This document shows, in pieces, positions 5,296 through 7,199 of a DNA stretch of 64,000 nucleotides; the first letter of the stretch is position 1; the number at the start of each line of letters is the position of its first letter. The stretch lies in NCBI RefSeq assembly GCF_022045235.1, contig NW_027266286.1:51522001-51586000 (forward strand). Reading direction: 5' to 3'. A model generated the notes under the pieces. The model was not told the DNA's origin. It saw only the letters and a list, made by a program, of their open reading frames with translations, and searched no databases. The translations under genes and the position numbers were made by a program. This stretch comes from Haliotis cracherodii (taxonomy: Eukaryota).

Positions 5296-5612
5296 GGATC
5301 GAAATCGGACCAATCCGAAGCCTGGATTGTCGACCAATCAGAAGACAGCATCGACCAATCAGAAGACAGCACCCGACCCGAGTTGTGCTTTCTCTCCCAT
5401 GGTAAAATCCATTTCCTATGGAAAAGAAACACAAGGGTCGGGTCGTTTTAGAAAACCGAGGTGCAGGCCAGGCACCGGAACGAACCAATCGGTGCGTTGC
5501 GTTTTGGACCAACCAGGAAGCAGCCAATTTCGATCCGGTTCTTCCCCCATAAAACAAGAGTGGATTCGAGTGGGCCAGTGTCACTTGTAAAATTGATGTG
5601 ATAAAATCAAGA
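5296..5612 (+). promoter_or_regulatory. Repeated promoter module, copy B; lies between the divergent pPolB and BIR ORFs
   Basis: CCAAT at 5310, 5334, 5355, 5485 and 5524; AAACACA 5427-5433; CATAAAA 5548-5554. Highly similar to 6370-6683. Confidence 0.8.
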
Positions 5613-6065
5613 ATGGCTGAAACAAAGAAGAGTGGTACGACGACACGTGGCGAAGATGTGGTGATGGATAGTACAGATACTCGTGGATGTTGGAGTAAGA
5701 GTCATGCCGAGGAGGCGGTGTCACTGCTCAGTCAAACGCCATCGCACTATTATCTATGCTTTGAAAGAAGGCTCGCTTCGTTTGAGACGTGGCCCACGCA
5801 AATGTATCAGACTGCTGAAGAGATGGCTCATGCGGCCTTTGTCTACACTCAGGGTGCCGATGGTGTGTGCTGTTTCCAATGTGGTGTGCGGCTGAGACAA
5901 TGGGCACCCCACGACAATCCTTGGGCGGCACATCACAAGTGGTCCCCAGACGGCGATTACCTCAAGCTAACCGGGCTGGTGAAACACCAGAAGCAACTAC
6001 AACTACACTATCTCTGCGAAGAGAAACAGAGGTACACGAATAACGTAGCAGAGCCGGCTGCCTAG
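5613..6065 (+). CDS. Single-BIR-domain protein (IAP/survivin-like), 150 aa
   Basis: RRLASFETWP...AAFVY...DGVCCFQCGVRLRQW..HDNPWAAHHKWSPDG matches the BIR pattern Cx2Cx16Hx6C, except that the last Cys is Gly. Confidence 0.88.
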   Translation: MAETKKSGTTTRGEDVVMDSTDTRGCWSKSHAEEAVSLLSQTPSHYYLCFERRLASFETWPTQMYQTAEEMAHAAFVYTQGADGVCCFQCGVRLRQWAPHDNPWAAHHKWSPDGDYLKLTGLVKHQKQLQLHYLCEEKQRYTNNVAEPAA

Positions 6066-6125
6066 GAGGACGTTTCCCGTGTCCTGCGTTCCCGTTCAAG
6101 TTCCCGTTCAAGTTCCTGTTAATAC

Positions 6126-6160
6126 GGCCCTTTTGAGGGCCACCCATCTCACCCAAAAGA
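6126..6160 (+). terminator. Histone-type 3' stem-loop plus downstream element
   Basis: GGCCCT-TTTG-AGGGCC (6126-6141), ACCCA (6142-6146), AAAAGA (6155-6160); begins about 60 nt after the BIR ORF stop. Confidence 0.85.
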
Positions 6161-6369
6161 CAACTTTCCTCCTTTGCTTTACCAACCCAAACAACAATCC
6201 AAAACAAAGAACCCACATGACATTCCGATTGGCATGGGAGTGACACACACGTACATCACGTAGGCATTCCCACGTTCATGTCTACCTATGAAGGTCCACC
6301 TTCCTTTAGCATTCAGACGACCGTCTACCTACAAAAAAATACCAAGGCTACCCAAGAAGAAATAAACCC

Positions 6370-6683
6370 GGATCGAAATCGGACCAATCCGAAGCCTGGG
6401 TTATCGACCAATCAGAAGCCGCGCTCGGGCCATGGCGGTCTCTGATTGGCCGAACCGGGGTTGTGCTTTCTCTCCCATGGTAAAATCCATTTCCTATGGA
6501 AAAGAAACACAGGGGTCGGTCCGCTTTGGAAAACCGAGGTGCTGGCCAGGCACCGGAACGAACCAATCGGGGCTGCGGCCTGGGGAACCAACCAAGAAGC
6601 AGGGTGTCAGTACCTCTCCTATAAAACAACAGTGGATTCGAATGGATCAGTGTCACTTGTAAAATTTATTCGAAAAATCAAGA
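6370..6683 (+). promoter_or_regulatory. Repeated promoter module, copy C
   Basis: CCAAT at 6384, 6408 and 6563; ATTGG at 6445; AAACACA 6505-6511; TATAAAA 6620-6626; Inr-like TCAGT 6647-6651. Confidence 0.85.
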
Positions 6684-7007
6684 ATGGCTGAAAACTGGGA
6701 TCTGGAGCTAGCCTCAGTGGTGCACCCTTTGCCACTGTGCAAAGGGTGTCGCTCGGAGTTGGAGAAGAAAGAAGCAGTACCGCCATTGCCATTGCCTCCA
6801 CCATGGCAATGCGGTACATGCCAAGGGGGCCTGCCTGTGTACGCCCTTGGCACAAGGGCACGGGATGGAACATTTCAATGTGTGTACTGTAAGACCATCC
6901 TCAAGGACACCTACGTGCGGCGGTTAACGCACACCGGTAGGTGTCCTGTGAGGAGACAGATGAATGTCCACCCGTGCCTTTGCACCATGGCGTGTACATG
7001 CATGTAA
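6684..7007 (+). CDS. Small Cys-rich, putative zinc-binding protein, 107 aa
   Basis: Three CxxC pairs (CKGC, CGTC, CVYC), a Pro-rich linker and a C-terminal CLCTMACTCM. Bounded by promoter copy C and a 3' stem-loop. Confidence 0.7.
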   Translation: MAENWDLELASVVHPLPLCKGCRSELEKKEAVPPLPLPPPWQCGTCQGGLPVYALGTRARDGTFQCVYCKTILKDTYVRRLTHTGRCPVRRQMNVHPCLCTMACTCM

Positions 7008-7017
7008 ACATCAAAAC

Positions 7018-7052
7018 GGCCCTTTTCAGGGCCACCCATCTCTCCCGAAAGA
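7018..7052 (+). terminator. Histone-type 3' stem-loop plus downstream element
   Basis: AAAAC-GGCCCT-TTTC-AGGGCC (stem-loop 7018-7033), ACCCA (7034-7038), GAAAGA (7047-7052); starts 11 nt after the stop codon. Confidence 0.9.
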
Positions 7053-7199
7053 CAACTTTCCTCCTTTGCTTTGACGACCTTCCAAACCAAACCATGAACC
7101 CGTCTCCTCCTCCTTCCCTCCCTCCCTCCCTTCACCACCACCACCCTCCCTCCCTCCCTTCACCACCGCCACCCCGTCTATGTTTAGAACAACAACAAC

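Follow-up and report, generated by a model that had tools for sequence, protein, structure and literature searches.

Gene cassettes at the right end of a Polinton

The window analysed here, a 64,000-nt stretch of the Haliotis cracherodii genome, contains the right part of an 11,096-bp mobile element with AGTAGT ends (G000:C23:51518351–51529446). The following features belong to this part:

749–954, − strand: putative third cassette promoter (partial copy), preceding an ORF at 3–506 (−)
1006–5214, − strand: protein-primed DNA polymerase B gene (pPolB, PF03175), broken into several frames
5290–5612, + strand: putative cassette promoter 1, with CCAAT at 5310, 5334, 5355, 5485 and 5524 and a TATA-like CATAAAA at 5548
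5613–6065, + strand: intronless 150-aa ORF with a single BIR domain (IAP-like; Pfam BIR, E 4.8e-19)
6126–6160, + strand: histone-type 3′ signal 1 (Rfam Histone3 match and host comparison), internal and outside the terminal inverted repeat (TIR); stem-loop 6126–6141, ACCCA 6142–6146, downstream element AAAAGA 6155–6160, predicted RNA end 6146
6361–6366, + strand: AATAAA, 220 nt downstream of hairpin 1, where it could direct polyadenylation of read-through RNA
6364–6683, + strand: putative cassette promoter 2, with CCAAT at 6384, 6408 and 6563, ATTGG at 6445 and TATAAAA at 6620
6684–7007, + strand: intronless 107-aa Cys-rich ORF
7018–7052, + strand: histone-type 3′ signal 2 (Rfam Histone3 match), at the inner edge of the right TIR; stem-loop 7018–7033, ACCCA 7034–7038, GAAAGA 7047–7052, predicted RNA end 7038
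7015–7446, no strand: right TIR, ending in ACTACT, with its inner edge at hairpin 2
7447–7452, + strand: 6-bp target-site duplication GCCGTT, the same 6 bp being present at the left end

As a preceding sequence-only reading had proposed, the element is a Polinton, recognisable by its pPolB gene, its AGTAGT ends and the 6-bp target-site duplication; the BIR and Cys-rich ORFs lie where that reading had placed them and are intronless. Between its ends the element carries the broken pPolB gene, two BIR genes, a zinc-knuckle ORF, the Cys-rich ORF and other small ORFs, and lacks genes for integrase, packaging ATPase, protease and capsid. Its left TIR, 3.1–3.6 kb before the window start, holds a decayed hairpin with two substitutions behind the zinc-knuckle ORF. 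Toll-like receptor genes, one full (9267–11744) and one broken (20964–22833) or the reverse, lie around the insertion site, and tandem partial U3 snoRNA copies occupy 37907–38225 (−).

Each cassette combines a CCAAT/TATA promoter copy with an intronless ORF and, in sense behind it, the host-type 3′ signal. Promoters 1 and 2 share about 80% identity, and the element as a whole contains four copies of one CCAAT/TATA promoter (76–82% identity to promoter 1); no hairpin follows the ORF at 3–506 (−). An origin of this promoter from a histone gene was considered and rejected, as it had no extended match to host histone promoters, the sole overlap being the 9-nt word GGATCGAAA in the host H2A/H2B spacer.

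In the BIR ORF of the window one zinc ligand of the BIR motif, the fourth (at about residue 114), is missing; this ORF had dN/dS values of 0.35–0.68 in pairwise comparison with 13 other copies. BIR relatives occur in H. rufescens at 53–93% identity. NCBI annotation names these BIR genes as abalone IAPs, and part of the abalone IAP count therefore belongs to a mobile element; IAP cargo as such has already been reported in Polintons, according to the available text of PMC8502044. The Cys-rich protein had no Pfam family, no homologue in a homologue search and no Atlas match at 0.9 or above, and its ORF showed dN/dS of 0.10–0.31 against 12 copies. Values for the zinc-knuckle ORF were noisy (0.6 to above 1) and are left out as support.

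Histone-type 3′ signals behind non-histone ORFs

Both window cassettes end in a hairpin with a 6-bp stem and a 4-nt loop, GGCCCT-TTTG-AGGGCC behind the BIR ORF (hairpin 1) and GGCCCT-TTTC-AGGGCC behind the Cys-rich ORF (hairpin 2). Each stem is followed by ACCCA, 8 further nt and (A/G)AAAGA, which thus occupies the 14th base onward. Stem and loop fit RF00032, including the G-C at pair 2 and the U at loop position 3. Searching the window with the Rfam Histone3 model, as the sequence-only reading had suggested, matched both: signal 2 scored 35.6 bits (7013–7058, E 1.2e-6), above the gathering score of 34, and signal 1 scored 31.2 bits (6121–6166, E 5.5e-5), below it. The paired arrangement of hairpin, ACCCA and purine-rich element is thereby confirmed at the positions claimed for it. 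A consensus pattern found two matches in the 64-kb window, a number reached in none of 100 shuffles (shuffle mean 0.00). Each hairpin is the minimum-energy fold of its own 61-nt context; as the fold z-scores are weak (–0.93 and –1.57), the case stands on sequence, not on stability.

The absence of AATAAA between stop codon and hairpin, likewise claimed, holds well beyond this locus: neither AATAAA nor ATTAAA occurs between stop and stem in the two window cassettes or in any of 36 cassettes measured. On the + strand of positions 1–7500 these hexamers are found just at 5054 and 6361, and none lies between hairpin 2 and the TIR end.

Across cassettes the signal always lies in sense orientation behind an ORF, with BIR, Cys-rich, zinc-knuckle and 86-aa ORFs as partners, none of them a histone. 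The hairpin-bearing ORFs are therefore not replication-dependent histone genes; it is merely their 3′ end that works like one. Distances from stop to stem fall at 10, 47, 60–63, 104–133 and 328–331 nt. The 25–60 nt spacing on which regulated stability is said to depend critically (10.64898/2026.10.14.759114, available text) is found for the window BIR ORF (60) and the 86-aa ORF (47), and the Cys-rich ORF (10–21), the zinc-knuckle ORF (104–133) and long BIR variants (125, 328–331) fall outside it. No hairpin follows pPolB, the second BIR gene or the structural genes, so the element would have two kinds of 3′ end.

A family divided between two elements

The sequence-only reading had called the element self-synthesising, a description that does not hold: the pPolB frame is broken, and integrase and capsid genes are carried by a separate element. 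This capsid element (10.2–10.6 kb) contains ATPase, integrase, capsid and protease genes without pPolB, and shares its TIRs with the polymerase element; its Pfam matches are weak for protease (E 0.037) and capsid (E 0.0054). Both ends were present in 6/6 copies, five of them with a perfect target duplication, and the polymerase element (10–12 kb) had both ends and a 6-bp duplication in 8 of 11 copies. Among at least 45 capsid loci, three lay within 25 kb of one of at least 122 pPolB loci, and one such pair, 4.4 kb apart, is a degraded locus. The Polinton family is thus split: one element provides the polymerase, another the capsid and integrase, both have common ends, and we infer that the two complement each other.

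In its capsid protein the family shares 99% identity with a protein that NCBI assigns to H. cracherodii and 74% with one of H. asinina. A partial capsid element also lies 14–19 kb before the window (L032:900–5750), outside the target duplication of the window element. At its right end (L147:2376–2515) the capsid element is similar to the sequence that follows the second BIR gene in the polymerase element, with the TIR joined on just past the hairpin; judged by this junction, it looks like the product of a deletion that took the hairpin behind the structural genes. As a separate observation, a distant Polinton fragment (integrase 35%, ATPase 32%) is nested inside one polymerase element.

Conservation of the signal across copies

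An exact 21-nt motif, which by design leaves out host histones, occurred at 328 genomic sites compared to 0 for the reversed control, and all 30 sites that were fetched were linked to the element, none to a histone gene. A genome scan with the Rfam model scored 75 of about 170,000 candidates and is no census. To avoid selecting on the hairpin itself, we took 14 copies by their pPolB gene and examined their ends. At least one hairpin was present in six of these; six others contained no recognisable cassette in the stretches covered, and two retained promoter and TIR. The latter two belong to a subfamily (L279, L280, L297) in which another sequence, with no hairpin, lies between promoter and TIR. 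Where these 14 copies retained a BIR, Cys-rich or zinc-knuckle ORF, a hairpin followed in 14 of 15 cases (a 69-nt zinc-knuckle fragment in a cassette-less copy was left out of this count), the exception being one copy with the hairpin gone behind BIR. In capsid elements, chosen by their major capsid protein (MCP), the hairpin followed the 86-aa ORF in 6/6.

Departures from the commonest letter were then counted over 23 sites, i.e. 20 from these copies (14 + 6) and the three of the window element. The rate was 1.9% for the stem-loop, 0% for ACCCA and 0.9% for the AAAGA core, vs. 9.2% for the spacer and 10–11% for the stretch after the core; as the sites are kin and were accepted within four substitutions of the motif, these figures describe a pattern, not a probability. 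Two of the window element's three sites lie in TIRs, which can be homogenised without selection, and pPolB copies are often 96–98% identical. Promoters of the same cassette, however, have diverged down to 73–82% identity with the 21-nt signal undiverged, and TIR tips differ between copies down to about 70%. Loss of the hairpin from other copies or relatives had been named in advance as evidence against the proposal; we found instead that copies keep it, as does, in altered form, the relative described below.

Host histone ends, a SET-domain family and pathway components

Host H1 genes end in GGCCCTTTTCAGGGCC, followed after 13 nt by AAAAGA, and host core histone genes in GGTCCTTTTCAGGACC, followed after 12 nt by AAAAGA, with the stem 27–43 nt after the stop. 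The proposed comparison with the host's own 3′ ends thus places the element next to H1, with which it shares both an identical stem and the 13-nt gap to the downstream element. The H1 genes themselves reside in their own 3.0-kb tandem array (G000:C23:50.93–51.15 Mb, and C37), apart from the 4.25-kb core-histone repeat.

The signal had been held to be essentially confined to histone genes. This part of the proposal fails in the abalone host: in an intronless SET-domain gene family (12 near-full-length matches on contigs C56, C67, C32, C36, C14, C48 and C20, 63–100% identity), the stop codon was followed by a hairpin of the histone type and a purine-rich element in 10/10 genes examined, with the stem variants GGCCCT/AGGGCC and GGCCTT/AAGGCC. 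Around one of these genes (L003:598–1491) no Polinton cassette matches were seen. The SET family ends histone exclusivity for this host, yet use of the signal by a mobile element is still novel.

As to the processing machinery, the host encodes an SLBP RNA-binding domain (PF15247, on two exons of contig C80). Rfam RF00066 identified no U7 snRNA among 65 scored host candidates, U7 motif scans gave numbers near chance (69 vs. 161 in the control, and 18 vs. 10), and none of 41 folded candidates had a convincing U7 shape.

A monopartite relative and searches beyond the family

A monopartite relative of 16.5 kb (G000:C4:10273016–10289513), with PC4 and BIR cargo, shares 49–50% identity with the window family in the MCP and 54% in pPolB. 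Just inside its TIR, 37 nt behind the BIR ORF, it contains GGTTCC-TTAT-GGAACC followed by ACCAA and AAAAG (Rfam score 24.2 bits). This hairpin was identical in the five copies that keep the region, the other five of ten examined having lost it, and an AATAAA lies about 50 nt behind. Its top pair is C-G, and as it has an A at loop position 3, where a U-to-C change greatly impairs human SLBP binding (PMC4604434, available text), its binding by SLBP may be weak, or a different protein may take that role. The BIR protein of the relative shares 29% identity with that of the window, so that one gain and two gains are indistinguishable. When 16 distinct host and element ends were aligned, 99% of cells paired, and three of the six pairs (3, 4 and 6) changed on both sides, these changes stemming mostly from host histones and the one relative.

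Beyond this relative the signal was not seen. Four elements of Polinton families at roughly 30% identity in the same genome had none (one of them judged by script scan alone). In JGI metagenomes, the 80 loci kept of at least 498 confirmed capsid loci included no hairpin with a purine-rich element (0/80; mostly short contigs that may miss element ends), and one hairpin without such an element, within the shuffle range of 0–2. None of 15 motif matches in IMG/VR had a six-pair stem, and no capsid or pPolB relatives turned up in that collection. Within these samples, the histone-type signal looks lineage-limited among Polintons.

Contig ends near the predicted cleavage sites

Four contig sets from four coded organisms, four of 18 runs guessed to be RNA, were inspected for ends near the hairpins. 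One contig ended at 7038, the predicted cut, and another at 7040. A different contig passed through hairpin 1 at a depth of 10.2 vs. 8.9 for the BIR contig, one of depth 100 continued past the downstream element, and promoter regions, too, were covered by contigs. Since the hairpin is a shared repeat, assembly graphs would be expected to break near 7041–7044 anyway. Contig ends therefore neither establish nor exclude the predicted RNA ends. The same sets revealed the family in related organisms, with other sequences joined to the hairpin.

Probable processing by the host histone pathway and its alternatives

The locus presents a real, conserved and host-matched signal on a split Polinton. According to the available text of 10.64898/2026.10.14.759114, such hairpins are bound by SLBP, the downstream element base-pairs with U7, and cleavage by CPSF73 falls 5 nt past the stem. 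We consider it reasonably probable that accessory mRNAs of the Polinton are processed by the host SLBP/U7 pathway. Host RNA polymerase II would transcribe the cassettes, SLBP would bind the element hairpin, U7 would pair with AAAGA, and CPSF73 would cleave at 6146 and 7038. The accessory messages would thus likely be cleaved 5 nt downstream of the hairpin and stay unpolyadenylated. What the element might gain is translation of an apoptosis inhibitor and helper proteins in SLBP-rich cells—S phase, oocytes and early embryos—presumably the settings that let a DNA element replicate and enter the germ line. A further gain could be a stop for transcripts heading outward into the terminal repeats.

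The claim of histone-mimic mRNAs is accordingly borne out as regards a host-type, conserved signal, and its cleavage, SLBP binding and lack of poly(A) are predictions from that signal. Its weakest step is restriction to S phase. Decay timed to the close of S phase would probably be limited to cassettes with a short stop-to-hairpin distance; many distances lie outside both the 27–43 nt of host histones and the range of 25–60 nt, and strict S-phase timing is doubtful for cassettes whose hairpin lies at 10 nt or beyond 100 nt.

Several other accounts of the hairpin were weighed against this reading. It might bind SLBP as a signal for translation or stability on RNAs most of which extend past it and acquire poly(A), as in the two-form H2A.X message; H2AFX is described as bimorphic in the available text of PMC4604434. 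Contigs that pass through the hairpin, the AATAAA at 6361 and the one about 50 nt behind the relative's hairpin, and stop-to-stem distances of 104–331 nt in many copies all fit this account. SLBP binding alone, however, would not need the conserved AAAGA core and its spacing, and no AATAAA or ATTAAA lies between hairpin 2 and the TIR end, so we regard it as unlikely. We give still less credence to the idea that a host gene end (from H1 or the SET family) was captured and persists as an inert relic, multiplied within a young family by cassette duplication and TIR homogenisation. The high identity of many pPolB copies, the two sites in TIRs, the hairpin-less subfamily and the non-canonical loop of the relative would be expected of a relic; the divergence of cassette promoters around an unchanged 21-nt signal, the divergence of TIR tips, the position of the BIR site inside the element and outside the TIR, and the six-pair stem that the relative retains through changes on both sides would not.

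Two further possibilities appear very improbable. Were the hairpin a DNA-level part of the terminal repeat, serving protein-primed replication, integration or packaging, its place at the inner edge of both polymerase-element TIRs and of one capsid-element TIR would be explained. The right TIR of the capsid element, however, starts just past the hairpin in 6/6 copies, whose ends match and of which 5/6 have a perfect duplication, and the signal also occurs internally, always in sense behind an ORF; a capsid element without a hairpin at its right end and one internal site make such a role hard to credit. Nor do we set much store by a decoy, i.e. RNAs that soak up SLBP or U7, lower host histone synthesis and leave the element DNA less wrapped. 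The many copies would suit a decoy, as would HCMV, which blocks histone mRNA processing and needs SLBP (PMC9169081, available text), yet the ORFs in front of the hairpin are under purifying selection, so the RNAs would be messages first.

Processing of the accessory messages by SLBP and U7 therefore remains our preferred reading. Taken one step further, it would mean that an animal DNA virus lineage adopted the histone 3′-end pathway for accessory genes, on a two-segment Polinton and before the split at 50% capsid identity, a scenario towards which we lean slightly.

Implications and comparison with known systems

Together with the host SET family, the preferred reading would, if true, open the mollusc SLBP/U7 pathway to non-histone and viral genes. 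Among cellular mRNAs, only those of replication-dependent histones are described as lacking poly(A), and CLIP of human SLBP is reported to have yielded no target besides histone mRNAs (both in the available text of PMC4604434). Proteins of the pathway have been sought in large DNA viruses and none found (10.64898/2026.10.14.759114, available text), and an element that carries the histone signal itself would amount to a new viral expression strategy. If the reading holds, poly(A) RNA-seq would also under-represent the cassette genes, and Polinton activity could go unnoticed in such data. In agreement with the sequence-only reading, which knew of no such description, we found no virus, Polintons included, for which a histone stem-loop is reported in the literature consulted, with subscription journals, Repbase and supplements outside its scope. 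The split Polinton genome is a second, independent point of interest; no report of one was found in the literature seen, although supplementary genome maps could hold either feature.

Taken together, the two elements resemble Polintons/Mavericks (adintoviruses) in their pPolB, rve integrase with chromodomain, A32-like ATPase, adenovirus-type protease and capsid, as well as in AGTAGT ends and a 6-bp target duplication. They differ from known Polintons in that the core genes are distributed over two separately integrated elements and that cargo genes have histone-type 3′ signals. Segmented genomes with pPolB are known from the parvovirus-like bidnaviruses (available text of PMC8502044 and PMC11071296); unlike these, the split family has a Polinton capsid, protease, ATPase and integrase, and integrates. 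With metazoan replication-dependent histone genes (RF00032), the cassettes share the 6-bp stem, the U-rich 4-nt loop, the AC-rich tail and a purine-rich element 13 nt on, in addition to an intronless ORF, the lack of a poly(A) signal before the stem, and a stem equal to that of host H1. In contrast to histone genes, their ORFs are non-histone and mobile, with 10 to 331 nt between stop and stem. HCMV, finally, is likewise a DNA virus tied to the histone mRNA pathway: it needs SLBP by a route described as unknown, and the available account of this need mentions no viral stem-loop (PMC9169081). Unlike in HCMV, the signal in the Polinton lies within the element's own genes.
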